The notes below the pieces were generated by a model. The model was not told the DNA's origin. It saw nothing but the letters and a program-made list of their open reading frames with translations, and did no database searches. From an uncultured Pseudomonadales bacterium (lineage in GTDB: Bacteria > Patescibacteriota > Microgenomatia > UBA1400 > UBA12028), in NCBI GenBank assembly GCA_964635905.1, contig CAZWPK010000001.1, positions 68,894 through 132,893 on the forward strand: DNA of 64,000 nt. Direction: 5' to 3'. Shown piece after piece: positions 10,319-33,500 of the stretch. Every line of letters starts with the position of its first letter. The stretch's first letter is position 1. A program made the position numbers and the translations under genes.

Positions 10319-10351
10319 CAAAATCTTATTTTTCTTCCAGGGAAAATAGTA

Positions 10352-10735: not shown

Positions 10736-10752
10736 TATCTACACATTCTTTG

Positions 10753-10823: not shown

Positions 10824-10900
10824 CCCGTATCCTTCTTCAAATTTGGTTTTCCTTGTTTCGTTAAAAAGTGCTATTCTTATTCCTTAAAAAGGAGAATCCT

Positions 10901-11113
10901 ATGGCAACAATTGAAGAGCAAATGGAGAGAGCACATCATTTCGCTGACACCAGTTCAGTGATTGGTAGGGGATTTAGGCCATCACCTGGAGTAAAGGAAA
11001 TAGAACTCAATGATCCAGACCTAACGACTGAACCCGGAACAAAAGTAGATCTTTCAAAAGAAACGCAATCACCATTCATGCGTTTTCTACGAACGATACT
11101 CCGGAGCAGATAA
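10901..11113 (+). CDS. small hypothetical protein (70 aa)
   Basis: ATG at 10901 is preceded by AAAGGAGAATCCT (SD-like) and sits in frame within track ORF 10868..11113. Acidic N-terminus. Confidence 0.4.
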   Translation: MATIEEQMERAHHFADTSSVIGRGFRPSPGVKEIELNDPDLTTEPGTKVDLSKETQSPFMRFLRTILRSR

Positions 11114-11339
11114 CGGCTTATTTCCCAACCACTTGCTTTAGGGCATCAAGCACAAACTGGACCACAAACTTAATCAGTTGTGCGCCAAAGATAATCGTCT
11201 TTTCAAGAATTGACGTTCCTGCCTGTATAGCAACACGTTTAAAATCGTTTTTATCGGGTTGGTAGGGGGAGTTGTAGGCCATGGGCATAGTATACTCCAG
11301 ATACCGACATGTCGTCACGGTGCTACAATAGTAGGCTCT

Positions 11340-14218: not shown

Positions 14219-14755
14219 ATGGCAGTGACACGTCAAAAATTCTTTCTCGATTCTGGTTTTACTCTTCTTGAGTTAATTGTTGTGATGGCAATTATTGGCA
14301 TCCTCGCAATGCTGGCGGTAGGCAACTTTCAATCCAGTCGAATCAAAGCTAACGATGCACGACGGAAGAGTGATTTAAAACAAATCCAGGCTGCTTTAGA
14401 ACAATATCATGCAGACTTTGGAAACTATCCTGGATCTGCCAGTAATGGAACTATCCTAGGTTGTGGAGCGGGGACGTCAACGTGCAGTTGGGGTGCTGCC
14501 TTTTCGATTACTGGAGGGGCAGTGTATATGAGTAAATTGCCCTCAGATCTGTCTCCTCAACGGTACTATTATGTGGGAAGCACAACAGGTCGATCTTACC
14601 AACTGTTTACCACCCTACAAAATACTCGAGATAATGACAATACCACCTTCACTGCGATTGCACCCAACTGTGCCTCCACGGGGACACTGGCGTGTACCTA
14701 TGGAGTATCCAGTTCAAATGTCACGATCGGTAGTGCTGTATCTACCATGCCATAA
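14219..14755 (+). CDS. type IV pilin / pseudopilin (prepilin-type N-terminal cleavage/methylation domain)
   Basis: N-terminus ...SGFTLLELIVVMAIIGILAMLAVGNFQ (class III signal, G|FTLLE). C-terminal Cys pairs (GCGAGTSTCSWG; CASTGTLACT). Confidence 0.85.
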   Translation: MAVTRQKFFLDSGFTLLELIVVMAIIGILAMLAVGNFQSSRIKANDARRKSDLKQIQAALEQYHADFGNYPGSASNGTILGCGAGTSTCSWGAAFSITGGAVYMSKLPSDLSPQRYYYVGSTTGRSYQLFTTLQNTRDNDNTTFTAIAPNCASTGTLACTYGVSSSNVTIGSAVSTMP

Positions 14756-14765
14756 AGGAAATGCT

Positions 14766-15263
14766 ATGAAGATCAAAGTGCTTTCGCGTTTTGTCCTCCA
14801 ACAGGGGTTTAGCTTAGTGGAATTGATTGTGGTTATTGCGATTATCGGAATCCTTACTGGACTAGTGGTAACCAATCTTTCTGGCGCTCGGGAGCGTGCC
14901 CGTGATGCACGACGAAAAGCAGATCTTCGGGCTATACGGGATGCACTACAGCTGTATCAAAATGATTATGGTGCATTTCCTGGAAATAATGCTTCTGGCC
15001 AAATCTTAGGTTGTGGAGCCTCCGGAACATCTGCCTGTGCCTTTGGCAGTGCATTTAGCGCAAATGGGAATGTCTATATGGGGCGTATTCCGCAGGATCC
15101 ACTCAATCGGAGTACCTATGTGTATCGCTATGCGGCAAATGCAACCGTCGATTATTTGTTGACAACAAACCTAGAAAACATCTCCGATCCGGATATCGCC
15201 AAATCACAAACGCGTTGTAACGTGTCGACAGGTGGAACACAATACGTGGTGTGTAACCAATAG
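14766..15263 (+). CDS. type IV pilin / pseudopilin paralog
   Basis: MKIKVLSRFVLQQGFSLVELIVVIAIIGILTGLVVTNL. Shares the YxxDxGxxPG...ILGCGA...C..G.AFS core with the upstream pilin. ATG 14766 is in frame with the longer track ORF. Confidence 0.85.
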   Translation: MKIKVLSRFVLQQGFSLVELIVVIAIIGILTGLVVTNLSGARERARDARRKADLRAIRDALQLYQNDYGAFPGNNASGQILGCGASGTSACAFGSAFSANGNVYMGRIPQDPLNRSTYVYRYAANATVDYLLTTNLENISDPDIAKSQTRCNVSTGGTQYVVCNQ

Positions 15264-15664: not shown

Positions 15665-17800
15665 CTATTCCTCCGGCACATCCGGAATCGCCGATGCGGA
15701 GGCAATCCCTGCGTCATCCGTCAAGCTGACGGGGGTGTTGACTTTTGGAGTGGCACTTTGGGTCGCCTCAATGGCTTGTGGTCGAGGCGTTGCTGTTGGC
15801 TTCGGGGTTGCAGAAGGCGTTGCTGTCTGTGTCGCCGCTGCGCTGGCGGCATCCCCCAGTTTCTTGCGTAAGGCATCTGCTTCTACTTTAATTTTTTCAT
15901 ATTGTGGATCATCTTGTTTGATCAGAGTGAGAGTCTTATCTAAGTAGGCAAGCTGTTGTGGTTCCTTTTTTACTTCTTTTGCAATATCAGCCAAGTTAAA
16001 GTACGCATTAGCGTAATCTGGTTTGAGTTGGACGGCCTGTTCTAATAATCGAGTAGCCTGGTCTAAGTTTTTCGCGCGGCGGAAAACACCGGCTAAATCA
16101 ACCCGGATTTTAGGATCCGATGGCGCTCGTTGAATGGCTTGAACATAGGCAGCAACTGTCCATTGGTCAGCTTGTTGTGCAGCTCCAATCAGTGCTTCAT
16201 AGATGGTTGCTAAGGTTTGCCAGTTGGCTACATTAGCAGGATCAAGCGCTACTGCAGCTTTTGCTTCATTAATCCCTTGTTGAATCAAGGTGAGCGCTGT
16301 CTTTCGATCATCCTCCGAAGGTTCTTTTTTTTGTGTTAATCCTTGGGCAATCAGTACGTTCGTGTTTGCAAAGGAACGGCGAAATTCCTCATGATGGGGA
16401 GCGATTTGAATTGCACGTCGTGTTAAATCGTACGCATCTTTTGCCTTATTTGCTCGAATGGCAGCTAATGATTGATTAAAAACAGTTTTGGCAATCGCTG
16501 AACGGATGTTAAAGAAAAGGGCAATTCCAGAAAGAGCGCACAAAACCACACAGACAAATCCCAAGACACCAAAAGCAACCTGACGTTCATCCTTACTTGT
16601 CTTATCCTTCGCGTTGACTAATGAGAATTCCGACTCCTCCACTCCCTCACTGGGAAGAGAATAGGAACGGGTATTTGTTGCCCATACCATTGCCAACAAG
16701 GTAAAGAGAGCAAGCAAAATGACATTGACGGGGAGAAGAAGGAAGAGAATGACGATCGTTAGGGTTGCGGCGGCAACAGGTAAGTCTTGTTTCTGTGTTT
16801 TTCTCAGTAACGCAAGAATTCCCAAGCCAATGAGAGCTAGTGCTGATAAACCGACAATTCCATGGGTCACCACAATATCGAGTGGGAAGCTACGAGCATT
16901 TGCGTATCGAATGAACCAGAACTCACCTTGGTTCATGGCAACAGGGCGCAAAATGCTAAAAGCATTGAGATAACTTTCAGTTCCAACCCCTAGGATTGCA
17001 GTACGTGGATTTTTAAGCACATCGAGCGCAATACTCCAACTTTGCTGAAAACTCATTAATACTGGACTTTGTGGTTGACCGGGAAGCAAGAGAGAGGCAT
17101 TGAGGAGCAATCCTAAGACCATGAGTCCACTCATCGCAGCGACAACCAATTTTTCTACAGTTTTCTTTGAAGTTACAAAAAATGTGAGTGTAGCAGCCAA
17201 TGCGACGATAAGCACCGTGGTATTGAGAAGAGGACCTCCATTGGGAAAGATTCCCGAGAGGGTGGAGTTGCCCGCACCAATCAAGGGGTTGAGGTTTATT
17301 CCAACCCGATCGAGCGCAGAAAGGATACTTATTATTACTCCACTGGCACCCAAGGCGTAGACAATTTTTGACGTTAATCGACTATGTAGCAACGCCGTTC
17401 CTAGGAAGTAAAGTAAAGCACAAGCAATATAAAACATTCCTGTCCCAGTCAGAGCTGCCATTTTATTTGGTGCGGAAACAACGATTGACATTAATGTCGA
17501 GAGGAGTAAGACAATAAATCCAAGGTTGAGTGGGGTGCGTGTGATCACTAACTTACGACGGAAAAAGGAAAGAACTGCAAAAAGAGTCAAACCAATCAAC
17601 GCTAGGGCAATGACAATCAGTCGTTTACCACCTTCAAAACTCTCCGGTAGAAAAGGGAGAAAAGCCAACGGAAGCAAGAATGTTAATCCGACAGCACTAA
17701 CGGCACTGAATTTGGAGAGAAGTGAGTTGCGCATAAATAAAACCCTTTGTAGAGCTAACAACCGGAGTATAAGGTTATCGAATATTCTTTCCTTCCACAA
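15665..17800 (-). CDS. O-antigen ligase-like (Wzy_C) polytopic membrane protein fused to C-terminal TPR repeats and a Pro/Thr-rich tail; candidate pilin/protein O-glycosylation ligase
   Basis: About 12 TM in the N-terminal 400 aa, with a loop motif RSFPLDIVVTHGIVGL resembling the ligase H-N-x-x-L...E-x-G-x-x-G block. The C-terminal 250 aa carry TPR-like helices (AYVQAIQRAP, DYANAYFNLADIAK). The tail is ATQTATPSATPKPTATPRPQ. Confidence 0.55.
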   Translation of the reverse strand: MWKERIFDNLILRLLALQRVLFMRNSLLSKFSAVSAVGLTFLLPLAFLPFLPESFEGGKRLIVIALALIGLTLFAVLSFFRRKLVITRTPLNLGFIVLLLSTLMSIVVSAPNKMAALTGTGMFYIACALLYFLGTALLHSRLTSKIVYALGASGVIISILSALDRVGINLNPLIGAGNSTLSGIFPNGGPLLNTTVLIVALAATLTFFVTSKKTVEKLVVAAMSGLMVLGLLLNASLLLPGQPQSPVLMSFQQSWSIALDVLKNPRTAILGVGTESYLNAFSILRPVAMNQGEFWFIRYANARSFPLDIVVTHGIVGLSALALIGLGILALLRKTQKQDLPVAAATLTIVILFLLLPVNVILLALFTLLAMVWATNTRSYSLPSEGVEESEFSLVNAKDKTSKDERQVAFGVLGFVCVVLCALSGIALFFNIRSAIAKTVFNQSLAAIRANKAKDAYDLTRRAIQIAPHHEEFRRSFANTNVLIAQGLTQKKEPSEDDRKTALTLIQQGINEAKAAVALDPANVANWQTLATIYEALIGAAQQADQWTVAAYVQAIQRAPSDPKIRVDLAGVFRRAKNLDQATRLLEQAVQLKPDYANAYFNLADIAKEVKKEPQQLAYLDKTLTLIKQDDPQYEKIKVEADALRKKLGDAASAAATQTATPSATPKPTATPRPQAIEATQSATPKVNTPVSLTDDAGIASASAIPDVPEE

Positions 17801-17839: not shown

Positions 17840-20800
17840 CTATGGAGAACCACTGGACGGGCCAAATTTAACCGCACTTCCAGCTTGCATGAGCTTAAGA
17901 ATTTGAGCTTGTGTAAGGGGGTAACTGTAGATTCGAAAGTCATCAATTTTCCCTGTAAACCACGAATCGGGACTATTATCTTCAATTTCTCCGATTGTGG
18001 CATTCTCGGCATCTGTTGCAATATCATCAAACCAATCATCAAGAGTTCCGGTGCCTGCTAACGTTGTGGAAGCCCAGTTAACAGGTTTGGCATTGATGTA
18101 GAGATCGACGCCAGTGCCATCTTGCACATAACAGATATGTTCCCAGGTCTGTCGTCGGACTACATCGTTTGCTGAAAGATAGGTAATCTGATTTGATGTA
18201 GTGCTATTTCGAAGACTTGCGTAAACTGCAGCAGAGTCAGCGCCGGTGTCTGAGATAAAAAAGTTATGTTTGACATTCGATCCAGTGGAGTCAGAATAGG
18301 AAAAGAGTGTTCCTTGTGTCCCTACGTCTGTCGGAACGTCATAATAAAACCAGGAACACAGGGAACCGATAGTTTGGGTATCCATGATGTCATCCGGCAG
18401 CGCAACATAATCATCGGTCCCATCAAAATTAAGGGAGGCGTTAATTTTCCCCGTTGCCCCATTTCCCCAGGCAGTTGAACTTGTGTTACACGTGCCAACA
18501 GCTGTTTGAGACCCTGAACTTGTTCCAAACCAGGTTCCATGGTTTGTGTTTCCACTAACATCATTCATTGCGGTTCCTTGACATTCGTCAAATTGGTAGA
18601 AAAGAAACGGACCACCTCGATTATAGTCATATAGTATCTGTGTTGGTGTTCGTGCGTAGTTATAGATTACCGTGTGATCGATCGTGCCATCAAATAAATT
18701 GGATCCGGCGGATGACTGGCTTCCCCAAGTCAACGTGTTGGCAACTCCCAATCCAAGCCCCATCGTCGCGGTTCCCGTTTGGAGGACTCCGTTAATATAC
18801 AAACTCGGTGTATTACTGGCTCCCACGAAAACTCCAACCAAGTGGTACCAAGTATTGAGGGCGATAGCAGGATTACTCGTCGAACAGCCAGCGGTGTAGT
18901 TGGTATTTGACTTTTCAATTTCAAAGATAACGCGCGAGCCACAGGTTCCATTCGAGCTACCTACTAACGCAAGATGGTAGCCATCCGTACCTCCACTTCC
19001 AATTTGATAGGTCAAAATACGATGATTGATCGCGGCAGAAATCGTATCCACTTTTATCCACGTTTCGACAGTAAAGGATCCTGACCCAACTAGACCAAAG
19101 ATGGAGTTTGCCATCTGCATGACGTCATTATTGCCGTCAAACTGTAGACCGTTTCCAATTTTCCCGCGTAACCATCCCGTGTTTTTGCGATCCTGACCAA
19201 AGTTAGCATTCAGGGTAGCAGTATATCCGTTTCCGGAGGTATCAGGTGCGGACGTTCCACTCTTCTCGTCTAATTTCCATTCCCCTAAGGGAGGCCATCC
19301 CGCTCCATCCGCGAGTTGTCCAGATTCGCTGGCAGCAGTCACACCCAAATTCAAACTTGATCCGGCATTAAAATCCATGGCAATTTCTTGATCAGACATG
19401 ACTGTTTGGTAAATCTTAAACTCATCAATATACCCCTGATACCCATAGGTAGCCGAGGAAAGACCTTGGTATCCTCCAACATACGGTGTCCCGGTGTTGA
19501 CTTCAGCAGCACTATCAGAATAGGTGTCGGTATCAACATGTCTGCCGTTGTAATAGGTCTTGATAACTTTATTGACCCGATCATGAGAGATGGCGATATG
19601 CTGCCAGCTCCCCACCACAATTGGTGCCCCTAGCGTCACTTGAATTGCTGAACTCCCATTGGCGTATTGATACTGAAAGAGGGTTCCACTGACGTTAAAG
19701 TAGATCCAGTGAAACCCTACTGATGTGCTTTGTGCTCCGCGGTTATACAGTGTCGGCAGGGTAGAATTAGTCAAGGAAGTGGGATTAATCCACATACTAA
19801 AAGTGATGCCATCTTTGCCATCGATTGCAGGGCTGGATGTACCAGTGATAATGTCTCCAGAACCATCCATAGACAAGGATCCGTTTACTTTCCCATTCTT
19901 TTTAAAACTTGCGCCGGTAACTGTACCATTGTCCGTTCTACTTCCTGTATGGTGAGCAATAGCACCGGAGGATTCATCCATCGCCCAATACAAACTTGGA
20001 GAGAGGTTTTGGACGGTAGTCCGACTTCCATTGAAGTCTTGGTTGACTAAGCGATACGTTCGCTCGTAGTTGTAGATTATTATCTCATCTACGGAGCCAG
20101 TAAAATCATTCGAGGTGCCATCAGCATCAATTCCGATATACAGTGGATCGGAGTTGGTTAGCGTATTGGTTGCCGTCAACGAAGAATCGGTGGCAATCAG
20201 TAATCCATCGATATAGAGTTTTAGACTTGTAGCACCTAATTTCACACACTCTACATGATGCCAAGTATTGTCATCGTAGGTTGCCGCCGTGGACGTCGCA
20301 GAGTCGGTCGGTGACCAAGTCGAGTCATAATCTAACCCACACGTAATATCCCCATCCGATTCCATAATGACCTTGTAGCCAGCCTCGTTAAATTTGGACA
20401 GAATGACTTCTTGGGCAGAAGCGGTTTCATGTTTGAAAAAGAGGCTAATCGACATGTCCGCATCATCGGCAAAATCAAAATCAGCATCATCGGCACGTGT
20501 TAAATGCTGATTGGATCCAGCAAAGGCAATTCCTGATCCATATTTTCCGGTCTTCCAAGTCGGGGTATTCGTTAAGGTGAGCTCATTATCTCGTGTGGAA
20601 GTATCAAGCGCCGTACTCCCGCTATTATCGTCAAGATTCCAGTACCCAACAGGACTGGGGGGTGTGGCGTACAATTGCCGAATTTCTGCAGGACTTAACG
20701 CGCGATTATAGATACGTGGTTCATCGATTAGACCATCGTAATAGTCCGATCCCCCGAAGGAATAATGCGCAGCTCCCACGAGAAAGGTTTCACCGGTGTC

Positions 20801-22501
20801 CCCAATTGCGCTCGGAGCTCCAGTGGAAGTTGCTGCTAGTTCACCGTTGACAAAGACATTGGCAATCCGGGTTCGGGGGTCATAGGTTCCCGCTACATGA
20901 TACCAAGTTCCTGTCACTAAATTGCTGGTAGCTGTAGTTACCAAAAAGGTGTCTGTATCGATAAATAGGCGGACTTCATCGCCATATTGCGTCAGAAGAT
21001 AGCTTAAGTTCGTATCGTCCCACTTTCCGATGATATTAAAGTGTGTGGCTGCAGTAGTGGACTCCGGTTTGATCCATGCAGATAGGCTCAGGGCTCCGGT
21101 GACCGACAGAGTTGCATTGTCAGCAATGTACAAATAATTGAAGCTACCACGCTCGTTATCAATGCCATTTCCATATTTGCCATTGGCGTAGGCAGTGCTG
21201 TTGGCATTGGTTAACGTAAATCCATTTCCCGAAGCATCTGCGGCATTTCCGCTACTTTCATCCAGTTTCCAATAGCCAATTAAGCCATTGCTTAACGTAT
21301 CTTGGGGTTGTCCACCCAGCTTACCGGCGAACTGATTATAATCCGATTTAACCTGCGTTGCGCTGCGACCGTACGTATACAATTTAACTTCATCAATGCT
21401 TCCTAAAAACTTCTCTACACCATCGGCTCCTGCCGTTACGGCTCCAATCGTTAAGGCATAGGTATCATCCGACATGGCTTCAGTCACGCTACCTTCGGCT
21501 CGCTGCAGCCCGTTGACAAAAATACGTTCTGTTGTGCTATCGCGGCTGTACACCACATGGGTCCAGCGACTGGTTACGATATTTGCGGTGGTGGTTCGAA
21601 ACTCCTGCCAGCCATTCCCATTTTTGTAACTCACAGCAATTTCGTCTTGATCTAGATATAAGCTGTAGGCACGTGCATCCCAACTACTTGGAGTGCCTTT
21701 ATGCACAATGCCTTGCCAGTCAATGGTCGTACTGTTGGGGAAAATCCACGCTTCAATCGTCAGCGTATTTCCTAGATCCAACGTGGGATCATCGGTTGCC
21801 AGTACATAATCATTGGTACCATCAAAGCGTAAACACTTATCGACGACGCACTGACTATTGGTAACCCAGACAGGGTCATCGGTAGAGATGGAGGTCGAAC
21901 TTCCAAAGGTCGCATCATTGTCATTTGCGGTCGAATCTTGTGTCACTTGTCCGGTTCCTTCGTTAAATCCCCAGTACGCGACAGGACCTGGGGTAGATTC
22001 TTCGGACTGGAGGGCGAGAGAACCGAGGCCGGAGGCAGCGGAGGAGAAGTCAGCGGATTCAAATCCATTGGCAATGGTGGGGTTGCCATAATACATATAG
22101 TAGTTGGATTCCCCAGCTGGGAGGGAATCAAAGAGGACATGGATGTTGGCCGTGGCATCACAATCTACGACATAGAATTTGAGTAACTGTCCATTTTCTT
22201 TGGTGAAGCGGAGATCACCACAATCAGCTTGGAACTTGGTAGAGTCTGTGGCATCAAAGGAGGGGACAGAGACATAGACAGAGGATTCTAAGGAGGAATG
22301 GGAGGGGATGTTGACTCGTTTTCGATAGGCCCAATTGGCATCAAACCAGGCTGCTTGACTTAAGGGAGCTTGACGTAAGGAGAAGAATACCAAGGGGATG
22401 AGAATGAGTACAACAGGAAGAGTGATCGCCAAAATCAGGAGTCGAGAAAAACTCCGGGAACGTAATTTCCGGTGACCACTGCGAATGCGCTTCACTCTCA
22501 T
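17840..22501 (-). CDS. 1553-aa N-terminally anchored surface protein: DUF2341-like N-terminal module plus multiple LamG/concanavalin-A-like lectin domains
   Basis: N-terminal TM LILAITLPVVLILIPLVFF, then WAYRKRVNIP...CGDLRF...YYV (DUF2341-like). Repeated Laminin_G_3-like blocks with FDGTNDYV / FDGTDDYVALPD / LQFDGNNDVM / W..L..W.H. C-terminus ends FGPSSGSP. Confidence 0.8.
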   Translation of the reverse strand: MRVKRIRSGHRKLRSRSFSRLLILAITLPVVLILIPLVFFSLRQAPLSQAAWFDANWAYRKRVNIPSHSSLESSVYVSVPSFDATDSTKFQADCGDLRFTKENGQLLKFYVVDCDATANIHVLFDSLPAGESNYYMYYGNPTIANGFESADFSSAASGLGSLALQSEESTPGPVAYWGFNEGTGQVTQDSTANDNDATFGSSTSISTDDPVWVTNSQCVVDKCLRFDGTNDYVLATDDPTLDLGNTLTIEAWIFPNSTTIDWQGIVHKGTPSSWDARAYSLYLDQDEIAVSYKNGNGWQEFRTTTANIVTSRWTHVVYSRDSTTERIFVNGLQRAEGSVTEAMSDDTYALTIGAVTAGADGVEKFLGSIDEVKLYTYGRSATQVKSDYNQFAGKLGGQPQDTLSNGLIGYWKLDESSGNAADASGNGFTLTNANSTAYANGKYGNGIDNERGSFNYLYIADNATLSVTGALSLSAWIKPESTTAATHFNIIGKWDDTNLSYLLTQYGDEVRLFIDTDTFLVTTATSNLVTGTWYHVAGTYDPRTRIANVFVNGELAATSTGAPSAIGDTGETFLVGAAHYSFGGSDYYDGLIDEPRIYNRALSPAEIRQLYATPPSPVGYWNLDDNSGSTALDTSTRDNELTLTNTPTWKTGKYGSGIAFAGSNQHLTRADDADFDFADDADMSISLFFKHETASAQEVILSKFNEAGYKVIMESDGDITCGLDYDSTWSPTDSATSTAATYDDNTWHHVECVKLGATSLKLYIDGLLIATDSSLTATNTLTNSDPLYIGIDADGTSNDFTGSVDEIIIYNYERTYRLVNQDFNGSRTTVQNLSPSLYWAMDESSGAIAHHTGSRTDNGTVTGASFKKNGKVNGSLSMDGSGDIITGTSSPAIDGKDGITFSMWINPTSLTNSTLPTLYNRGAQSTSVGFHWIYFNVSGTLFQYQYANGSSAIQVTLGAPIVVGSWQHIAISHDRVNKVIKTYYNGRHVDTDTYSDSAAEVNTGTPYVGGYQGLSSATYGYQGYIDEFKIYQTVMSDQEIAMDFNAGSSLNLGVTAASESGQLADGAGWPPLGEWKLDEKSGTSAPDTSGNGYTATLNANFGQDRKNTGWLRGKIGNGLQFDGNNDVMQMANSIFGLVGSGSFTVETWIKVDTISAAINHRILTYQIGSGGTDGYHLALVGSSNGTCGSRVIFEIEKSNTNYTAGCSTSNPAIALNTWYHLVGVFVGASNTPSLYINGVLQTGTATMGLGLGVANTLTWGSQSSAGSNLFDGTIDHTVIYNYARTPTQILYDYNRGGPFLFYQFDECQGTAMNDVSGNTNHGTWFGTSSGSQTAVGTCNTSSTAWGNGATGKINASLNFDGTDDYVALPDDIMDTQTIGSLCSWFYYDVPTDVGTQGTLFSYSDSTGSNVKHNFFISDTGADSAAVYASLRNSTTSNQITYLSANDVVRRQTWEHICYVQDGTGVDLYINAKPVNWASTTLAGTGTLDDWFDDIATDAENATIGEIEDNSPDSWFTGKIDDFRIYSYPLTQAQILKLMQAGSAVKFGPSSGSP
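21971..22433. repeat. about 463-bp perfect direct repeat, copy 1 (5' coding end of LamG gene 1)
   Basis: Nucleotide-identical to 27035..27497 by direct comparison. It encodes the shared TM anchor and DUF2341-like module. Confidence 0.8.
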
Positions 22502-22645
22502 AGTATGCCAATTTTTTCTTGATTGTACTAGGGATAAATCAACAGTGAAGGAACAATCTACAAGATCATATTGCTACAAAAACATCCATACCATGACAAA
22601 AAAGACTCACAATATAGGGCGAAGCATCAGAACAAAACGACCATT

Positions 22646-25600
22646 CTACGGTGAACCCGAAGACGGTCCAAAGAACAGAGAGGCGTTGTTGTTATAGAGT
22701 TTGCGGGCGTGATAGATGGATAAACGATAGTTAAAGATTTGTAGTGCATCAATTTGACCGGTGAAATTATTACTACCAACCGTTGCTGCATACGTGCCAA
22801 TGGTTTTGCTACGTCCGGTTGTAGTGATGGTATTTCCGTTAAAACCAGCGCTTCCCGAGACAGTTTTACCATCTAAGAACATGTAGACCTCATGACTGCT
22901 CCCATTGTAACTGAGGGTACACACAAAGTGGTGCCAAGCACCGTCGTTGACCAGCGGGGAAGGAGAAACGGTCCCACTTCCGGAGGCATTGCCGACATTA
23001 CAAGCAACGCGATTGGTGGTGTTTACATAGATGTTAAATCGGTGGGTTGTAGTAGTCCCCACATTGGAAAAAATGTATCCAATGCCACCGGAATAATCGG
23101 CCGAAGTTTTGAACCAGACGCTTACTGATTGTTCTCCGACGTCGGGTGAAAAGATGCTGGTATCGGCAATCGAAACATAGTCATCACTCCCATCGAAGTT
23201 TAAGCTTCCATTAAATTTCCCAGTCGATCCATTTCCCCAGGCAGTGGAAGCGGTAGTGCAGGTACCAGCGGTGGTTTGGGAGCCGCTAGCCCCAACGGTA
23301 AGGGTGCCGTTGTTTCCTTTCCCAGAAGAGTCGTTTAAGGTGTTTCCTTGACATTCATCCAGTTTCCAATGAGCGATGGGAGCTCCCCGGCTAAAGTCAT
23401 AGGCAATTTGAGCATCGGTGCGGGCATAGTTATACAACTTGAATTCATCCACCGACCCATTCAAGAAAGAGTCGGGACTATTGTCTTGGATGTTGCCTAT
23501 CGTAACCGCTTCCACCGAGGCTGCACCATCATCAAACCAGTCATTTAAGCTCCCAGCTCCGCCATCGGTGGCGGTGACCGCAATCTTTACGCCGTTGACA
23601 AACATCTCGACTCCCAAGCCGCTCCCAGCTTGGCGCAGACATAGATGTGTCCAGGTAAGACGGGGAATGGCATTGTCGGCAGAGGTGTAATCGTACGCAT
23701 CATTGGCGGTGCCATCTTGTCGAATGTGGACGCGTAAACGGGCGATATCACTCCCCGTATCAGAGATATAGATCGAATGCTTGGTCACCGTTCCTCCGGT
23801 GTCGGCAACGGAGAAAAAGCTGCCCTGCGTCCCATCATCAGTAGGCTTATTGTAATAGACCCAACCACACACAGTGCCTACGGTGTGACTGTCCGTACTA
23901 TTGTCCGGAAGGGCAATAAAATCGTCGGTACCATCTAACCGCACCCCTGTCCCAATTTTCCCTTGCGTCCACACGGGTCCACTAGTCAGCGTCCCGGTGT
24001 TTCCCGTGCTACTGGTATCAACAGCAGTAGTGCCAGTATTGTCATCGAATTGTAAATAGGAAGCTGGGGGATTCCCGCTCCCATCCACGGATTGGGCACT
24101 CTCGGCGGTGGAGGTGCTATTGATATTTAAGGCTGCGTTGGCATTCGCATCCACACGAATTTCTTCGGAGCTAAGCTCACCGCTGTAGATTTTAAACTCG
24201 TCAATTCTTCCATCAAAATTTGCGGTGGTTGTTCCGCCAACCAGGAAATTTGCCGTATCTGTAATTGCAGGGGAACCCGATCCATTCGTGGAGGTTCCTT
24301 TCCGTATTCCATTTACCCACAGACTAATCTCATCGTCGCTATCATCTGTATATGTTAGGGCAATATGGTTCCAGGTGCCGGTAGTGATCGGAGAACTTAC
24401 ATTAAGCGTTGCGTCGCTTCCGGTTAAATCTAGACTACATTCAATATCCAGATTACTTCCTGACTGGGAATCTACCCGACACCAGGTAGTGGTGCCTTTA
24501 TAAAAAATTTGACCCACATCATTTTCGCCATCAGAATCGGCATTAATCCAAGAAGAGATCGTGACACCTTGTGTTAATGTCACATCAAAATCAATCGCAT
24601 CACCATTGGTGACTGTTAGGACGTCATCACTACCATCAAAGTCTAAACAACCATTGAGTTTACAGTCGGTTTTGGTTTTCCAAGTGGTGCCGGTTAAAGT
24701 CTCTGTAAACGCGATACTAGAGCGGGAGTTAATGGTGGTGCCTTGGACTTCATCCAATGCCCAATAGGCAATCGGAGAGCCAACCGGGGAACCGGCCAGT
24801 GGATGTCCCCCATTCATATCTTCAATAATTTGTTCACTGGTTCGCTGGTAGTTATATACACGAAGATCATCCATTTTCCCCGGGAACTGGGTTGAAACAC
24901 CACTGTTAAGAGCTCCTATCAAGATTGCAGCGTTGCTACTTATTCGTCCCGCGATCGCGCAGGTTTTTACCAGGACGCCATTTAAATAGATACGAACGTT
25001 CACTCCGGTTAGTGTATCTTCATAGGTGACGGCCGCATGACTCCAAGTATTGGCGGAGAGAATTCCTGTGGACGTATTGCAGCTAGTTAAGACCGATTGG
25101 GTTTGGTTGCGTACATTTCCAAACAGTCCGCCTCCAGCAAGCTGTGCCAGTCCAAACCCATATGTGGACCCATTTTCTCCTCCGGCAATCACTCCAGCAG
25201 GTGTGATTGTAGAAGGATTGATCCAGGCCATGACGCTGGCACTCCCGTTGGTGATGGTATATGGTGTGCCAACCGATCGTATATAGTCATTCACCCCATC
25301 AAAAAATCCAGCTTTGCCAAATTTCCCCTCGGCTCCACCCATGGGTCCAGTCGAATTTGGACACGCAATTGCTGAATAGGCATTTCCCGATTTTTCCTGT
25401 ACTGTGGCGGTTGAACAGTCATTGGTCCAACTCCCTTCATCCATGGGCCAGTACCCTATAGGTCCTGTAGCCCAGTTGGCAAGTTGTTCGATTGCAAGAG
25501 GTGAGAGGGCGCGGTTATAAATGCGAGCTTCATCGATAATTCCTTTGTACGGGTGGGTTGTGGGTGCACCTCCCAAGTACACGACTTCGGTTCCGGTATA

Positions 25601-27568
25601 TAAAGTGCCGGTATAGGTCGTGCTACTTTCCAATTTTCCGTCAATAAAAATAGACGCTCGAGTCCCATCCATGGTCGCGGCAACATGATGCCAAATTCCA
25701 TCATTGACTAGGGTTGTACCTGCGACTGCCACTCCATCGTTTACTCCTCCAACTTTGGAAAATAACACGATGGAGCCATCGGTTCCGTACGCACCTCCTG
25801 ATGTAAGACCGAGCCAATAATTGCGTGTGGTATTGCTATCGTTATCTTTGGATATAAACGTCTGTAAACTTCCTGAGGACGTCGTCTTCACCCAGGCGGC
25901 TAGAGTGAACTGTTGCAGTTGGAGGGAAGCAGCATTGGCAACGCTGATGTAGTCATTGGTTCCATCCATCCACACCGCGTTGCCAAAGCGCGCGGTGCCA
26001 GTTTTGTGGACAACTTGATAGTTACACGAGTTTAAGGTGGCAGCGAATGCATCCGTGGTAAAGGTTTTAGTACTCCCCACATAGTCGTTAATAACACGGA
26101 TGGTGTTAATCGTATTACCGCCACAGGTTGCGGTGATTTGCAGATACATTCCAACATACATGTCGTCAACGGACGACAGTGTTCCATCGGTATCAACTAA
26201 CACCGTTGTAGATCCACCGGAAGCATCGGCCGTCCCACCTTCATTTGTGCCGGTGATGGTGCCAGTATTCCCGATGCCCGAATCATCAACCACCGACGTT
26301 CCTGCCGTCAGTAGTTCATCCATCTTCCAGTAGCCAACGAGACCTTCCGAGAGAAAGGTGGTGGGGTCGTTTCCTCCTAGTTGAGCGGCCCGATTGCTAG
26401 CCATATCCATTTTTATCTGGGCGGGGGTACGCGCGTACCCATACATTTTGACCTCATCGATATATCCTTTATACAAATAGGTCGAACTATGGTTAAATCG
26501 ACCGATGCTTAAGGTTCCGGCGGTCGCGGTGTCGCGTGTTCCCGAAGTACTCGAGCTTGTGGCTACAGCTACACCATCAATGTACAGGGTCATTGTCGTG
26601 CCGGAAACCGTACATTCTAGATGATGCCATTTACTATCGCGATAATTCGTCGTTACGATGGCCTCTAGGTATGTGTTTCCTGAATTGGCTTGGTACACTT
26701 TACAGTGCAGAGTTTCATCGGTATGAAAAAAGATGGCATAGAGCCAGTCGTTGCTAGTTCCATAATTGACCAACACGTGACTGGACCCGGCGGGTCCAGG
26801 ATTTTTGAACCAAAGGGAAGTGGAAAAGTTTCCCGTAAACTCGAGCGCATTAATATCTCCCACGTTGACATAATCTTCCACTGCATCAAAGTATAAACAA
26901 CTTTCACTCACACAGCGATCTTTCGATTGCCAGACAGGGTCGGTGGAGTTAGCAGATGTCGAGTTGCCTAATGTGCCATCATAGTTTTTTGTCGTACTAT
27001 CTTCGATAAACTGTCCCTGGGCTTCATCCATCTTCCAGTACGCGACAGGACCTGGGGTAGATTCTTCGGACTGGAGGGCGAGAGAACCGAGGCCGGAGGC
27101 AGCGGAGGAGAAGTCAGCGGATTCAAATCCATTGGCAATGGTGGGGTTGCCATAATACATATAGTAGTTGGATTCCCCAGCTGGGAGGGAATCAAAGAGG
27201 ACATGGATGTTGGCCGTGGCATCACAATCTACGACATAGAATTTGAGTAACTGTCCATTTTCTTTGGTGAAGCGGAGATCACCACAATCAGCTTGGAACT
27301 TGGTAGAGTCTGTGGCATCAAAGGAGGGGACAGAGACATAGACAGAGGATTCTAAGGAGGAATGGGAGGGGATGTTGACTCGTTTTCGATAGGCCCAATT
27401 GGCATCAAACCAGGCTGCTTGACTTAAGGGAGCTTGACGTAAGGAGAAGAATACCAAGGGGATGAGAATGAGTACAACAGGAAGAGTGATCGCCAAAACA
27501 TAGAGCCGACGCAACGAACGAGATGCTGGTATGCGTTTTTGATGTCGTTTCATTAGTTGATAATCCAC
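22646..27568 (-). CDS. 1640-aa paralog of the upstream LamG/DUF2341 surface protein
   Basis: N-terminal 165 aa are identical to the 17840..22501 product apart from the first ~25 residues. Multiple LamG blocks (FDAVEDYV, MDGTNDYISV, FDGVNDYI, FDGSDDVLTV, LDGTDDFIALPD, FDGSDDYVSI). Same FGPSSGSP C-terminus. Start overlaps the giant gene's stop by 16 nt. Confidence 0.8.
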   Translation of the reverse strand: MDYQLMKRHQKRIPASRSLRRLYVLAITLPVVLILIPLVFFSLRQAPLSQAAWFDANWAYRKRVNIPSHSSLESSVYVSVPSFDATDSTKFQADCGDLRFTKENGQLLKFYVVDCDATANIHVLFDSLPAGESNYYMYYGNPTIANGFESADFSSAASGLGSLALQSEESTPGPVAYWKMDEAQGQFIEDSTTKNYDGTLGNSTSANSTDPVWQSKDRCVSESCLYFDAVEDYVNVGDINALEFTGNFSTSLWFKNPGPAGSSHVLVNYGTSNDWLYAIFFHTDETLHCKVYQANSGNTYLEAIVTTNYRDSKWHHLECTVSGTTMTLYIDGVAVATSSSTSGTRDTATAGTLSIGRFNHSSTYLYKGYIDEVKMYGYARTPAQIKMDMASNRAAQLGGNDPTTFLSEGLVGYWKMDELLTAGTSVVDDSGIGNTGTITGTNEGGTADASGGSTTVLVDTDGTLSSVDDMYVGMYLQITATCGGNTINTIRVINDYVGSTKTFTTDAFAATLNSCNYQVVHKTGTARFGNAVWMDGTNDYISVANAASLQLQQFTLAAWVKTTSSGSLQTFISKDNDSNTTRNYWLGLTSGGAYGTDGSIVLFSKVGGVNDGVAVAGTTLVNDGIWHHVAATMDGTRASIFIDGKLESSTTYTGTLYTGTEVVYLGGAPTTHPYKGIIDEARIYNRALSPLAIEQLANWATGPIGYWPMDEGSWTNDCSTATVQEKSGNAYSAIACPNSTGPMGGAEGKFGKAGFFDGVNDYIRSVGTPYTITNGSASVMAWINPSTITPAGVIAGGENGSTYGFGLAQLAGGGLFGNVRNQTQSVLTSCNTSTGILSANTWSHAAVTYEDTLTGVNVRIYLNGVLVKTCAIAGRISSNAAILIGALNSGVSTQFPGKMDDLRVYNYQRTSEQIIEDMNGGHPLAGSPVGSPIAYWALDEVQGTTINSRSSIAFTETLTGTTWKTKTDCKLNGCLDFDGSDDVLTVTNGDAIDFDVTLTQGVTISSWINADSDGENDVGQIFYKGTTTWCRVDSQSGSNLDIECSLDLTGSDATLNVSSPITTGTWNHIALTYTDDSDDEISLWVNGIRKGTSTNGSGSPAITDTANFLVGGTTTANFDGRIDEFKIYSGELSSEEIRVDANANAALNINSTSTAESAQSVDGSGNPPASYLQFDDNTGTTAVDTSSTGNTGTLTSGPVWTQGKIGTGVRLDGTDDFIALPDNSTDSHTVGTVCGWVYYNKPTDDGTQGSFFSVADTGGTVTKHSIYISDTGSDIARLRVHIRQDGTANDAYDYTSADNAIPRLTWTHLCLRQAGSGLGVEMFVNGVKIAVTATDGGAGSLNDWFDDGAASVEAVTIGNIQDNSPDSFLNGSVDEFKLYNYARTDAQIAYDFSRGAPIAHWKLDECQGNTLNDSSGKGNNGTLTVGASGSQTTAGTCTTASTAWGNGSTGKFNGSLNFDGSDDYVSIADTSIFSPDVGEQSVSVWFKTSADYSGGIGYIFSNVGTTTTHRFNIYVNTTNRVACNVGNASGSGTVSPSPLVNDGAWHHFVCTLSYNGSSHEVYMFLDGKTVSGSAGFNGNTITTTGRSKTIGTYAATVGSNNFTGQIDALQIFNYRLSIYHARKLYNNNASLFFGPSSGSP
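27035..27497. repeat. about 463-bp perfect direct repeat, copy 2 (5' coding end of LamG gene 2)
   Basis: Identical to 21971..22433. The two copies are 5064 bp apart. Confidence 0.8.
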
Positions 27569-30500
27569 CAGTTAAACTCCACATCCTTACTCAAGGCTTG
27601 GTCCAGCGTGACCGTAAACCCACCCACGGTAGTAGTTGTCTCGTCTTGACCTTGTTTGCCAGAGACATACAAGACTTGGTTATTCGTACTGCTCGTTGGT
27701 GTGATATAGATTAACGAGTCCGAGGACACTTGAGTGGTATAAATAATGACATCGGTTTGTCCTTGCTTCAAGACGGCTTTTCCAGTACTTGCGTTTGTTG
27801 CCGATCCACTCGCTGTGGTTGGGGCGCTCAAGGTCAGTTTAGCAAAAGTTGCAGATCCACTGGCATCAATAGAGGCAACTTCTGTCATCCCGCTCTTGAT
27901 GGCAAGTTTGCCACTTTCACTGGAAAGAACCCCACTCTCACTAGCCAGTTGAATCCCTAAAATCTTGGATTCCGGAGCAATCAAGGTTGTTGACAGTTGA
28001 CCCTGGACGGTCACGTCTTGGGTAAAGAGAGCGTCGGTTGTCACCACTAATCCACCTTCGCGATTAAGGGTGAGAGCCCCAGCTAACAGATCTAAGGTTC
28101 CAGTCCCGGTAGCTTGGACATAAAGGGTCGACTCGGTGTCGGAAATAAGATTAATCGAGTTTTTGTCAAATGCCATACTGCTTCCTACAATGAGGGCCGT
28201 ATTGATGTGAGCATTGGTGATACTGGCCGTGCCTTGGACGTTTAAGTATTCGTTAGCAAAAACCGCATCGGCCGAAATCAGATCCGCAGAACTGCTAGCC
28301 TCTGTATTCCAGTCGGCACTGTCGGAAAGCAGATCGGAGACAATCAATTTAATTTCTGGATTCAAACTCGCAAGCAATTCATCCTTTTGTTGTCCGGAGA
28401 TTGTGGAATCCTGAGCCAACAGGGATGAAATGGAAGCTTCTGCGGTAATTAGCCGATTTGCCATTTCGGTGATATTTTTAGCTGTCAAGTTTCCAGAGAT
28501 GGTGGCCTCGGCAGCCGTCAGAATTCCAGAGATGGAGGCTTCTCGAGTATCCACGCGCTCACTCTGGGAAACTAAGTATCCATTTTGTGCAATCGTATCG
28601 ATGACTAAGTTATGCAGACTCTTTCCCCCAACGGTTAACGTGTCTGTTTGAATCGACGAAGATTGAATAGTTCCAGCAATCAACGTGGTAAAGACATTAC
28701 TCGTAGACTCCACAATTTCGGAGAGGGAAGCGGCAATCGAACGAATCAGCGTTTTATTGGCTTCTGCTTCTGGATTACTGGCAAGTTGTGCTAATCCATC
28801 AGCAACCATTTGGCCTTGGTTATCCAGTGCCATCGTGGGATCAGCAAACGATGGATTCACATACACTAAGACGTCACGATCTCCAGAGCCTGGGGTCCAA
28901 GCTTCCAAGGCATATCCGATAATATAGCCTGGTTTATTGGCTTTGGTAGCGCGTCCCGATTGTGTCGAAGGTCGCAGCGGATCTCCGGGGCGAATGGAGC
29001 CTTCTTGATCGTCTAGTTTAACATCGAGCTGTCCAGTGAATCCAACCAAAGCATAACTGGCAGCAATTTGTTCATCGGTTTTCCCTTTAGGGTAGTTTCC
29101 AACAAAACCAGCGCGATTGGAGGTGATACCTAAGAGTTTGTCTCCGGACTGGAATCGACGCACTTTTCCAGTTTCATAGTTAATACCCACGACTTCATTA
29201 GTGGGCAGGTCGCCTTCCTTTTCAAAGTATTCTGCAAGGTCGGCACCCGTAGTTTGGAAGGCAGCTTCACCATAGACTGTTCCATCGGCTCGGACGCGGA
29301 AGACTGAAGCAGCATCAGAACGTGTTAAGGAATTGTACGCGGTAATTAAGTTGTAGGCAGTGGTAGATGATCCAGCCCCTTCAACAGTCAATACACCTGG
29401 ATCACCTTGGGCGCCAGCGGTTCCTACGTTGGTCATGGTGATCGCTCCCGTGTTTCCGTTACGCACCAATAATGAGATGGTATCCAGATCATTGGTGGTG
29501 ATAAATCCACCCGCCACATTAAGATCAGTGGCGGTTGTGCCGGTTACCGATGTGGAGGTGTTACTAACCACAAAGTTCCCCGTACCTGTTAGGTCGGCGA
29601 CGATATCGCCTCCATTGTAGGTGCGTAGAGTCAAGTCGTTACTCTCATAATTTTCTCCGGCTTCAATGTAGAGCGGAGCCTTGGACTTGATAGAAGATGT
29701 CGTTTGATTGGTAAACTGCAAATCATATGCCATTGAGACATCCCCAGGGGCATTAAAGGCGACTGGTAAGGCGGCAGTGATAGCAGTCTCAGAGACAGAG
29801 AAGAGAGATGAGGCCGTGTCAGCAACCGAGAACAAGTTGCCACTGGTACTGCCATTGGTGCCAATGTTGATTCGGAAGAGATCTCCAGTGGCAGACGTTG
29901 CCGATCCCGGACTCCAATCGAAGTTGGCTAAGAAACCGGAAGTAAAGGCTGTAGAGGTAGAGGCGAGGGAGAGACCGGTACCGGAGGAGAGGGCATTAAC
30001 GCTGAGCGCTAATCCAGTCCCTGTAGCCGTTGCAGACTGAATGAGCATACCGGAGGTACCAGCGGTGACTAATTCCAATCGATCATCAGTGGCTTCATCA
30101 TAGCCCAAGGTCCAATCTTGATCCAAGCCGAAAGCAATTCCATTGTCGTCACCCAAGAACAACTGCTCCCATTCCGCAGCTGCAGATCCTAGTGAATTTC
30201 CTTCGGCGGCGCCAGCTGTCAAGTTGGTGGCATTCAGGGCTAGTTCGGCAACAGAATTGATGTAGAAGGTAGCGGTATCTGCCGTGGCTTCTCCTAAATC
30301 GATGTTTTCACCACCTGCAGTGGTAATGTCACCACCGCCTACACTCAAATCTCCAGAGACTGCTGTGGTTGGTGCGGTAATGGTAACAGTTCCATCCGTA
30401 TCGTTATCAATTTTTTCTCCATTCGCAAAGGTGATATCTCCACCAACCCCTGAAAGTGTTAATCCTGTGGTCCCGGAAATGGTAGTATTTCCAGACAGCG

Positions 30501-33500
30501 TGAGATCTCCACCAGAGGGAGCGATGGTCAGATCCCCGTTCGTATCGGTGGTCAAGTCGGAGTAGGTAGACCCATCAGCATAGGTTAGTCGTAATTGAGA
30601 ACCGGAGGTAGCTAAGACATCGAGTTTTCCATCCGGTCCGGTGGTTCCGATTCCCACATTTCCAGAGGTGTTGATCGTTAAGAAGGCATTGGTACCTGGT
30701 GTTGTTCCATCACCAATCTGGAAAAGGTCGTCATCATCCGACCCTGCATCTTCTTGAACACCTAACCAGAAATCGGTATCGGTGGCTGTCTTCGTATCCA
30801 AAATAATGTTGGGATCTGCAGAGTTGATCACCACATCTCCGGTTCCTTGGAAATCAAAGACGGCATTTCCAGTTCCATAGGTTTGGAAGGAAAGGTTGTT
30901 GTTTTCAAATGATTCACCAGCTTGCAGAATCAATGGTCCATAAGACTTGATATAGGCTGCTGTTTGATTGGTAAAGAGGAGATCGTAGGCCATCGAGACA
31001 TCCCCAGCTGCCGTAAAGGAAGTTGGGAGATTTGCAGTGATTGCAGATTCTGAGACCGAGAAGAGGGAAGAACCAGTGTCTTCAATATCAAAGAGATTTC
31101 CAGTTGTTGTCCCATTCGTACCAATATTGATTCTAAAGAGATCTCCAGAGGCTGTTGTGGCTGATCCTGGACTCCAGTCCAAACTTGCAAGACTTCCGGA
31201 AGTTAAGGCTGTAGATGTAGAAGAGAGAGCCAAACCCGTTCCGGAGGAGAGGGCATTAAAGGTGGTGGCAAGACCAGTCCCTGTAGCTGTTGCAGACTGA
31301 ATTAGCATACCGGAGGTACCAGCGGTGACTAATTCCAATCGATCATCAGTGGCTTCATCATAGCCCAAGGTCCAATCTTGATCCAAGCCGAAAGCAATTC
31401 CATTGTCGTCACCCAAGAACAACTGCTCCCATTCCGCAGCTGCAGATCCTAGTGAATTTCCTTCGGCGGCGCCAGCTGTCAAGTTGGTGGCATTCAGGGC
31501 TAGTTCGGCAACAGAATTGATGTAGAAGGTAGCGGTATCTGCCGTGGCTTCTCCTAAATCGATGTTTTCACCACCTGCAGTGGTAATGTCACCACCGCCT
31601 ACACTCAAATCTCCAGAGACTGCTGTGGTTGGTGCGGTAATGGTAACAGTTCCATCCGTATCGTTATCAATCTTCTCACCGTTGGCAAAGGTGATGTCTC
31701 CACCAACTCCTGAAAGAGTTAATCCTGTGGTCCCCGATACAGTCAGGTTTCCAGCTGCGGTAATCGCGCCAGCAGTTAACGTCATGGAATCGGAGGCAAA
31801 GGCGAGAGTTGGATCGGTAGCACCTGCATCAAAGGTCCAGGTAAATCCAGATCCGGATCCATAGGTGGTAGTGCCAACTTCGGTAGAATCCCAGGCAATG
31901 TCATCGGCGTTAATATCAATCGCGGTTCCTTCACCGACATTCAAGGTCACATCGCCGGTGATTCCACCACCCGTTAATCCGGAGCCAGCGACTACACTGG
32001 TAATATCTCCACCGGATCCTGCGATCGCCGCATCCAGGTCATCGAGGACATCTTGCACGGTTGTCGAAGCGGAATTACCAAACTCATCAAAGACGCCAAC
32101 TAACGAAGCTCCAGAAGTAATATTGTCTGTTCCCACATCATTGAGGCCAATGGCACCGATGGTTAAGTCTCCACCGGTATTGATGGTGAGATTCACGACA
32201 TCCGAGACAGTACCGGTGTTAATATCGATACCATTAATTGTTTCAGCAGTTGCTGCGGTGATGGCTCCGGAGGCATCAACTTGGAAGGCGTTTGCGGTAC
32301 CAGAGATTAATGTTCCCGATACATCCAAGTTTCCAGTGATTCCAGTAGAACCAGCAGTAATGGTGAGGGCATCGGAGGCAAAGGCGAGTGTTGGGTCGGT
32401 AGCACCTGCATCAAAGGTCCAGGTGATTCCTGATCCACTTCCGAATGTGGTAGTTCCTAGTTCTGTGGAATCAAAAGTCACGGTGGGACTCCAGGCTTCT
32501 CCAGCGGAACCAGAGACATCGATGGCTGTTCCTTCCGTGAGTCCGGCGATATAATTCCCAGTGGTGTCGGTGCCGAGGGCAACCGAGTCTGAAGCAATGG
32601 TGAGTGCGGTTGTATTAGCTGCACCCAAAGTCGCAGTCACATCACCGGTGAAGGTGTGACCAGAGAGAAGTACCGTACCTGTTAAGTCAGGGAAGGTAAT
32701 GGTCTTGTCCGCACTCGTTGCATCGGCAACGGAGAAGTACGTTTCAATCGTGTTGGCAGTGGCCCCTTCAAAGATGAGTCCTGACACACCAAACTTGGAT
32801 TCATTCGCCGCGAGGGTGTGATCTCCAGATAATGCTGCAGTGAAATCGAAGGCGATGGCATCCGCAGCAACACTAATTCCGGTTCCCGCTCCAATGTTGA
32901 GTGTTAATGCTCCAACTGTTCCACCACCTGTGAGCCCTGATCCTGCAGTGACTCCAGTTGTTGCATACGTTGCCACGTTGTTGGAGTCTACCAGCGTTCC
33001 GGATCGTCCATCGAGGAGTAAGAGTTCTGCTGTAGAGAGAGTTCCACCAGTAACGGTGACATTGTTGGATCCTAATGCCAACGTTCCAGCTGCAGTGATT
33101 GTGCCAGCCGTGAGGGTCAGACTATTGTTACCAGCAGCGAGGGTGGGATCGGTTACTCCAGAGCCATTCAAGGTCCAGGTGAAGTCAGAACCGGATCCAT
33201 AGGTGGTTGTTCCAACTTCCGTCGAATCCCAAGCGATATCATCCGCGTTAATATCGATAGCCGTGCCTTCACCAATATTTAAAGTGACATCTCCAGATAC
33301 TCCTCCGCCTGTTAATCCTGAACCAGCAGTCACAGAGGAGATATCTCCCGCCAAAGCTGTAGTGATCGAGGCATCGAGGTCATCTAAGACATCTTGAACG
33401 GTTGTTGAGGCTGAGTTTGCGAATTCATCAAAAGTTCCAACCAAGGATGAACCAGAAGTAATATTGTCTGTTCCCACATCATTGAGGCCAATGGTTCCGA

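Follow-up and report, generated by a model that had tools for sequence, protein, structure and literature searches.

A 464-nt exact direct repeat in two tandem DUF2341-LamG genes as the likely footprint of recent gene conversion

In the 64-kb window analysed here (the whole 64,000-nt stretch, taken from contig CAZWPK010000001.1), three large genes of a surface-protein locus lie head to tail on the minus strand: a giant gene, gene B and gene A, after which a gene for a multi-transmembrane (multi-TM) protein with C-terminal TPR repeats follows (Table 1). Genes A and B both encode a DUF2341 domain and an array of LamG domains, and they share a direct repeat of 464 nt that, by direct string comparison, contains no mismatches and is offset by 5,064 nt. 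We consider this repeat to be the likely footprint of recent intragenomic gene conversion between old tandem paralogues. A sequence-only reading of the same DNA had noted the identity of 21971–22433 and 27035–27497, which we confirm, with the exact match running one base further. It had also placed the repeat at the 5′ ends of two LamG genes and described divergent flanks. Both genes are indeed on the minus strand with the repeat at their 5′ ends, and in-register identity drops to 0.50–0.60 over 150 nt on the low-coordinate side and to 0.16–0.38 on the high-coordinate side.

When the full 64 kb were scanned along k-mer diagonals, this pair proved to be the longest exact repeat of the window; the other long exact repeats (449, 368 and 120 nt) all lie inside the adjacent giant gene, and beyond the three genes of the surface-protein locus the window has no comparable repeat. 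Exact inverted matches in the window reach 16 nt at most, and the repeat has no terminal inverted repeats. Both copies are in frame, begin at the second position of a codon and occupy homologous positions of genes A and B (Table 1). Each opens with the hydrophobic segment and closes with the sequence PGPVAYW, the conserved PVAYW of which begins the first LamG domain. Upstream of the repeat, gene A has a unique 5′ tail of 67 nt, and the spacer that separates it from gene B shows no similarity at offset 5064 in the in-register comparison.

Table 1. Features of the surface-protein locus and of other parts of the window (positions count from the first base of the window).
Feature	Position	Strand	Description
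Gene A	17840..22501	-	1553 aa; positively charged N-tail, TM/signal segment, DUF2341, six Laminin_G_3, C-terminal FGPSSGSP
Gene B	22646..27553	-	1635 aa from ATG; architecture as gene A, plus an insert of ~90 aa after LamG-1
Spacer, gene B stop to gene A start	22502..22645	-	144 nt, unique
Sigma-70-like match in spacer	22549-22522		Weak
Giant gene	27553..42510	-	4985 aa; upstream of gene B
Multi-TM protein with C-terminal TPR repeats	15665..17800	-	711-aa open reading frame (ORF); a later ATG is the likelier start
Repeat, copy 1	21971..22434	-	Gene A codon 23 (2nd position) to codon 177, nt 68-531
Repeat, copy 2	27035..27498	-	Gene B codon 19 (2nd position) to codon 173, nt 56-519 from the ATG at 27553
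Patch 2	37991..38451 = 39230..39690	-	461 nt, one mismatch (position 38002), exact run 449 nt
Patch 3	30044..30411 = 31304..31671	-	368 nt exact, inside 494 nt at 96.4%
Patch 4	33209..33328 = 36881..37000	-	120 nt exact
Repeat of 157 identical aa in giant gene	30007-30477/31267-31737		471 nt, 15 synonymous differences
C-terminal motif, gene A	17840-17866	-	FGPSSGSP type
C-terminal motif, gene B	22646-22672	-	[FY]GPxxGxP
Pilin-like ORFs	14219-14755 and 14571-15263	+	Overlapping; prepilin N-terminal methylation motif in each
tRNA-Ala genes	10248-10319 and 10753-10825	+	Anticodons GGC and CGC; ~500 nt apart
VirD4-type gene	54676-56880	-	734 aa; TrwB/VirD4-type coupling-protein and HerA-like ATPase domains
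Short similar pair	47706-47753 vs 50033-50080		48 nt at 71% identity, in two adjacent ORFs of ~460-490 aa

The tract stands out from its surroundings most clearly at synonymous sites. Within it (gene A codons 23–177), the two genes agree at 99% of amino acids and 100% of nucleotides and use the same codon at 150/150 conserved degenerate residues, the single amino acid difference being the boundary codon, the first base of which lies outside the tract. The homologous protein alignment of A and B continues on both sides, with very different values: in the 3′ flank (codons 178–440), amino acid identity is 35% and nucleotide identity 45% (32% at third positions), and the same codon is used at 43 of 85 conserved degenerate residues; in the 5′ tail (codons 1–22), the identities are 44% and 48%, and one codon in seven is shared. 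Over the first 55 flank codons, synonymous divergence (dS) is 1.85 and nonsynonymous divergence (dN) 0.51 by the Nei–Gojobori method. Chance is excluded as the source of the identity, because flanks of 45–48% nucleotide identity with 43 of 85 codons in common are set against a tract in which all 150 are the same; the tract is statistically unambiguous and real. Synonymous divergence in the tract is thus far under that of the homologous flanks, in a segment that is homologously placed and in the same reading phase in two paralogues of one genome, as is expected of gene conversion. Over their remaining length, A and B are ~30% identical in amino acid sequence, and each is 29–34% identical to homologues in other genomes; gene A, for example, is collinear over its full length (33–34%) with the single-copy homologues L032_1524 and L031_1553. 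By this comparison, the two genes are old paralogues rather than the products of a recent whole-gene duplication, because their bodies are no closer to each other than to the homologues of other genomes.

The giant gene upstream, with its MerR-type helix-turn-helix (HTH), TM segment, array of ~1.3-kb repeats and intramolecular-chaperone domain (Peptidase_G2), contains three further patches of this kind (Table 1), all of them on a background of 64–80% identity. One flank of the 461-nt patch is 74–78% identical, with differences mostly at third positions, and the flanks of the 368-nt patch are 64–80% identical. Elsewhere the repeats of the giant gene are diverged at synonymous sites and conserved in protein sequence (dS 1–2.5 and dN/dS 0.02–0.09 in region 32000–40300), such that stretches of 92–108 identical amino acids are encoded at 83–84% nucleotide identity (83% for the 108-residue stretch). 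Patches of this sort on a diverged repeat background are read as the classical mosaic signature of gene conversion, and the three giant-gene patches look like additional conversion tracts. The assembly preserves single-base differences between near-identical repeats, among them the one mismatch of the 461-nt patch and the 15 synonymous differences of the 157-residue repeat. As observations apart, the constraint on these repeats is unusually strong for repeats of a surface protein, the MerR-type HTH is N-terminal and cytoplasmic, and the Peptidase_G2 domain, which is tail-spike-like, lies near the C-terminus; the giant-gene product looks like a fibre that is anchored in the membrane and bears a head of DNA-binding type.

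Four lines of evidence give good support to recent gene conversion: synonymous divergence that is zero in the tract and saturated outside it, in-frame placement at homologous positions, diverged homologous flanks, and the three patches in the giant gene. Its course can be pictured as follows. Purifying selection is far stronger on the N-terminal module (N-module) than on the LamG arrays and would have kept the modules of the two genes similar enough for strand invasion, paralogues elsewhere being 66–85% identical; homeologous and non-reciprocal homologous recombination, presumably dependent on RecA, would then begin in the module, and one copy would be overwritten by the other, in either direction, over 464 nt, ending where usable homology runs out. 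Also in favour of conversion, a Pfam scan of 24 window ORFs, which left out six ORFs of at least 150 aa on the high-coordinate side, detected no reverse transcriptase, integrase or transposase among them. There is no new mechanism here; conversion between adhesin paralogues is already well known.

Relatives of the N-module (contigs designated by L numbers) allow this event to be placed within the family. Exact-protein look-ups of gene A and of two start variants of gene B returned no match. A protein search with the N-module gave a best match of 61% amino acid identity; matches in genome contigs ranged from 41% to 70%, and those in metagenome contigs reached at most 68%, the closest being L022 (68%), a contig named Hain-H43, which we take to come from a Hainich groundwater sample. 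The genomic matches belong overwhelmingly to metagenome-assembled genomes of the candidate phyla radiation (CPR)/Patescibacteria, Microgenomates, Levyibacteriota, Roizmanbacteria, Daviesbacteria and CPR3 among them, which makes a CPR bacterium the probable source of the window; a scan of a viral collection found no viral contig with a relative of the module. DUF2341-LamG genes number one to three per relative, with tandem pairs or triplets in L001, L003, L004, L008, L017, L018, L019 and L048. In L025 and L032, the closest relatives by N-module, the giant gene is followed by one DUF2341-LamG gene, which in L025 begins 4 nt past the giant gene, and then by an ORF of 641–642 aa that is similar to the TPR gene in size and position.

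In five of six tandem pairs compared in detail (L003, L004, L018, L019 and L048, counted as those with a single long 5′ alignment), the 5′ 450–800 nt form the longest well-conserved nucleotide stretch; the paralogous 5′ modules of relatives are 66–85% identical in nucleotide sequence and never 100%. In a sliding-window analysis of the proportions of synonymous (pS) and nonsynonymous (pN) differences, the modules of L018, L004, L003 and L017 gave a pS of 0.72–0.93, which is saturated, and a pN of 0.05–0.3, a pattern that we read as purifying selection without conversion. The tandem pair of L048 (3971–15706) departs from this, with a pS of ~0.4 over the first 150 codons against ~0.75 in the body; the last 25 residues of the pair are identical, and its 102-nt 3′ end is 95% identical. 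The lowered pS looks like an older event of this kind, and both observations are consistent with older conversion at the two gene ends. To judge from these pairs, conversion of the module is episodic across relatives, with a very recent instance in the window, since four of the six with tandem pairs show saturated synonymous divergence in it, and the usual similarity of the modules is due to purifying selection. On the same count, concerted evolution as a habit of the whole family was considered and rejected, and of the ‘recent or ongoing’ gene conversion proposed in the sequence-only reading, the recent part stands, given zero against saturated synonymous divergence, and the ongoing part is not borne out as a family trait. 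Selection on the module is visible between genomes as well, with 57–68% amino acid identity for the N-module against ~30% for the bodies; pN is 0.05–0.3 for the module and 0.35–0.55 for the bodies. In two closely related metagenome strains, L032 (gene at 7244–11770) and L034, the LamG body agrees to 98% across 3 kb and the N-module to 92%, with no alignment reported for ~400 nt between body and module nor over 11164–11565 near the 3′ end; this mosaic indicates that recombination between strains shapes the DUF2341-LamG family more generally.

Several points weigh against conversion in genes A and B. The two exactly identical copies are those of the assembly, and the collections searched contain neither this genome nor a close strain (the best N-module matches being 61–70% in amino acid sequence) and no independent assembly to compare. 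Two of the four tracts are of near-equal length (464 and 461 nt), which may be a coincidence or reflect a length scale related to the library or the assembler. Most relatives bear no sign of conversion in the module, so the process is not general. Finally, in a comparison for phylogenetic incongruence, the N-modules of A and B group as sisters, trivially, the bodies are about equally far from all relatives (29–34% amino acid identity), which defeats the assignment of orthologues to A and B, and the relatives give mixed patterns. The remark in the sequence-only reading that the segment is an assembly hazard is justified, given an exact direct repeat of 464 nt whose copies lie 5 kb apart, and two artefacts have to be weighed. 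It is unlikely, although conceivable, that both copies are real and nearly identical and that the assembler or a polisher merged a few differences, in which case ‘100%’ would be a slight overstatement. A 464-nt repeat exceeds the length of short reads, bubble-popping or short-read polishing can homogenise near-identical repeats, read mapping is ambiguous in such segments, and the loss of a handful of single-nucleotide differences is compatible with the sequence taken by itself. However, the same assembly keeps the mismatch at 38002 and 15 synonymous differences in 471 nt, and the copies would in any case still be ~97% identical or more against saturated flanks, which leaves conversion as the underlying biology. 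Very unlikely is a chimera or duplication made in assembly, with only one gene truly having the module, or with a single gene per genome and the alleles of two strains strung together through a shared segment. The single DUF2341-LamG gene of L025 and L032, between the giant gene and the 641–642-aa ORF, and the strain-level mosaicism of the family (L032 versus L034) would agree with it. By contrast, a de Bruijn graph is unable to make an exact copy from differing sequences, and a tandem path needs a unique junction made up of the gene B stop, the spacer, the gene A start and the 67-nt tail; allelic paths would not connect through this junction, because it resembles neither the 3′ end of the giant gene nor the region upstream of the TPR gene. 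Both copies, moreover, are in frame with homologous protein sequence on each side, and tandem pairs occur in at least six independent assemblies of relatives.

Among biological alternatives, programmed variation is improbable. It would make the constant 5′ module a maintained recombination handle for swapping LamG bodies into the slot translationally coupled to the giant gene, an adhesin-switching arrangement in the manner of bab, pilE/pilS or orphan toxin cassettes, and several features are compatible with this: the gene B ATG overlaps the giant-gene stop (TAATG, window 27553), as the L025 gene starts 4 nt after its giant gene; recombination between the repeats would put the body of gene A into that slot in frame; and copy number varies from one to three among relatives, with mosaic strains. 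Yet the 64 kb hold two copies only, both of them complete ORFs with their own ATG and N-tail, silent cassettes without promoters are absent, the ORFs scanned include no recombinase, a deletion between direct repeats cannot be reversed, and most relatives’ modules are saturated (those with a pS of 0.72–0.93 above), which is unexpected for a handle. In the form of an adhesin-switching handle in an episymbiotic CPR bacterium, with a 5,064-nt deletion or duplication swapping the coupled LamG array, the idea is just as doubtful; if true, members of one population would differ in having one, two or three genes, as relatives do among themselves, and host attachment would vary in specificity. That selection on the protein, an RNA or a DNA element keeps the segments identical without any recombination is scarcely credible. 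No other part of the family is as conserved as the N-module, and its distinctive C-rich and G-poor third positions are common to close relatives, but protein-level selection does not preserve synonymous sites, as the saturated modules of relatives attest, and the 108 identical residues of the giant gene, at 83% nucleotide identity, illustrate selection without conversion. The synonymous-site data effectively refute selection alone. An RNA element in the tract was considered separately and rejected, with a fold z-score of −0.41 (no excess RNA structure) and no Rfam match in the tract, the Rfam matches of the window being the two tRNA-Ala genes only. The tract is hardly more credible as part of a diversity-generating retroelement (DGR; a template and variable repeat pair) or as the terminal repeat of a mobile element. 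CPR bacteria commonly have DGRs, the hallmark of which is a pair of near-identical repeats close to a gene for a surface protein. Here, however, the copies do not differ at all, at adenines or elsewhere, each of them is coding sequence for an N-terminal end, the 24 ORFs scanned include none of the enzymes named above, and there are no viral relatives; these results refute both readings.

Conversion between genes A and B has its closest analogue in the bab adhesin paralogues of Helicobacter pylori (babA, babB and babC), in which conversion, reported at ~60–240 bp from the start codon, makes 5′ chimeras (PMC4552749). The two systems have in common paralogous adhesin genes with divergent central parts, the 5′ part of which is replaced by intragenomic recombination. 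They differ in that the bab loci are dispersed whereas genes A and B are in tandem, in that the bab 5′ exchange moves a CT-repeat phase-variation switch, nothing comparable being seen in genes A and B, and in that the proteins are unrelated, the Bab proteins belonging to the outer-membrane Hop family and those of genes A and B to the DUF2341-LamG type, in an organism that probably belongs to the CPR and lacks an outer membrane. The tufA and tufB genes of Salmonella represent a second type, the concerted evolution of duplicated genes by RecA-dependent conversion, which keeps the tuf genes nearly identical over their whole length by its frequency; concerted evolution of duplicated bacterial genes has reportedly been reviewed by Santoyo and Romero in 2005. 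Perfect-identity tracts of a few hundred nucleotides between paralogues, with boundaries in coding sequence and no mobile element, are shared with the tuf genes, but here only one module is identical, and conversion is rare among relatives. Cassette systems (Neisseria pilE/pilS, Borrelia vlsE, Mycoplasma genitalium MgPa and orphan Rhs/CdiA) likewise combine a shared constant region with variable bodies, and their direct repeats, like those described here, can fuse a downstream body to an upstream expression site. These systems rely on silent arrays that lack promoters and starts, however, whereas A and B are two complete genes with their own start codons, the constant region of which is not conserved at the nucleotide level in relatives.

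As to the proteins, both are assigned to DUF2341 (PF10102; 31.7 and 34.7 bits against a cut-off of 23.4) and to Laminin_G_3 (PF13385; 434.7 and 410.6 bits, in six stretches per protein), all above the curated cut-offs, with the PF10102 match at residues 93–144 of gene A. The identical tract encodes the hydrophobic TM/signal segment, the whole DUF2341 β-sandwich and the linker. In an AlphaFold2 model of residues 1–200 (pLDDT 69.5 overall and 80–89 in the sandwich), these correspond to a helix at 14–43, a β-sandwich at 59–138 and a disordered linker at ~150–175. The claim of the sequence-only reading that identity is limited to the anchor-coding segment therefore fails: the helix accounts for ~22 of the 154 full codons of the tract (which also includes two bases of a 155th), and the rest is DUF2341 β-sandwich and disordered linker. 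The model had no Foldseek match in the Protein Data Bank (PDB) at E ≤ 0.001, and a PDB sequence profile search with DUF2341 returned chance antibody matches only. In both proteins, the hydrophobic stretch of ~22 residues comes after a short tail with positive charge. Because an AxA-like motif, SQA|AW, follows the helix and recurs in homologues, the stretch may be cleaved off as a signal peptide instead of serving as an anchor.

At third codon positions the module is rich in C and poor in G (C 44% and G 8%, against C 26–31% and G 17–18% in the gene bodies), and the same strand-asymmetric bias is seen in the N-modules of L022, L023, L031 and L032. The bias suggests a constraint at the level of nucleotides or of translation on the 5′ region; GC-biased conversion was rejected as its cause because G is depleted.

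At the other end, both proteins and 11 of 14 complete homologues inspected (L003, L004, L017–L019, L025, L031 and L032 among the relatives) finish in the motif [FY]GPxxGxP, with two residues after it at most, examples being FGPSSGSP, FGPSTGTP and YGPSTGAP. It is not a known sortase- or exosortase-type signal, since no hydrophobic segment follows it in the inspected proteins. Assignment to the TafC family of fimbrial proteins (NF052521) was rejected, the score being 208.7 bits against a cut-off of 410 and the matches covering nothing but the repeated LamG units. DUF2341/LamG proteins are a class of large surface proteins of Patescibacteria and archaea. For Patescibacteria, large DUF2341 proteins have been described with a proposed role in adhesion or host interaction (PMC11809585), as have large DUF2341/LamG surface proteins with a proposed role in adhesion (PMC11310336), and a connection of DUF2341 proteins with type IV pilus-like systems has been inferred (PMC4858521). 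The products of genes A and B are probably large secreted or membrane-tethered surface proteins, namely adhesins. The TAATG overlap suggests that translation of gene B is coupled to that of the giant gene.

Two pilin-like ORFs adjoin the TPR gene, and the one at 14219–14755 resembles GspG/PilA-type pilins; such genes beside the locus fit the connection with type IV pilus-like systems that has been proposed for DUF2341 proteins. Farther away, the VirD4-type gene has an otherwise housekeeping neighbourhood (LeuRS and iPGM), and no other conjugation genes were noticed. The short similar pair of segments, which includes a ...AEYFRD motif, is presumably a case of ordinary paralogy between ATPase alpha and beta subunits.

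A likely conversion in genes A and B has consequences of its own. Through the direct repeats, the 5,064 nt between them could now be deleted or duplicated, and the deletion product would be one in-frame hybrid, made up of the N-tail of gene B, the shared module and the body of gene A, that is coupled to the giant gene; the one-gene layout predicted after deletion is that of the closest relatives, L025 and L032. For assembly, binning and variant calling, the repeat is a hazard, in that its collapse would remove 5 kb and leave a plausible in-frame hybrid gene, and reads from the tract are not assignable to gene A or gene B. The boundaries of the tract delimit an N-terminal module of hydrophobic segment, DUF2341 domain and linker that is evolutionarily uncoupled from the fast-evolving LamG arrays. 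Together, the 464-nt tract and the three giant-gene patches point to active homologous recombination in the main surface-protein locus of this reduced-genome, probably CPR, bacterium, a locus that encodes surface proteins of the DUF2341/LamG type, the leading candidates for host attachment.

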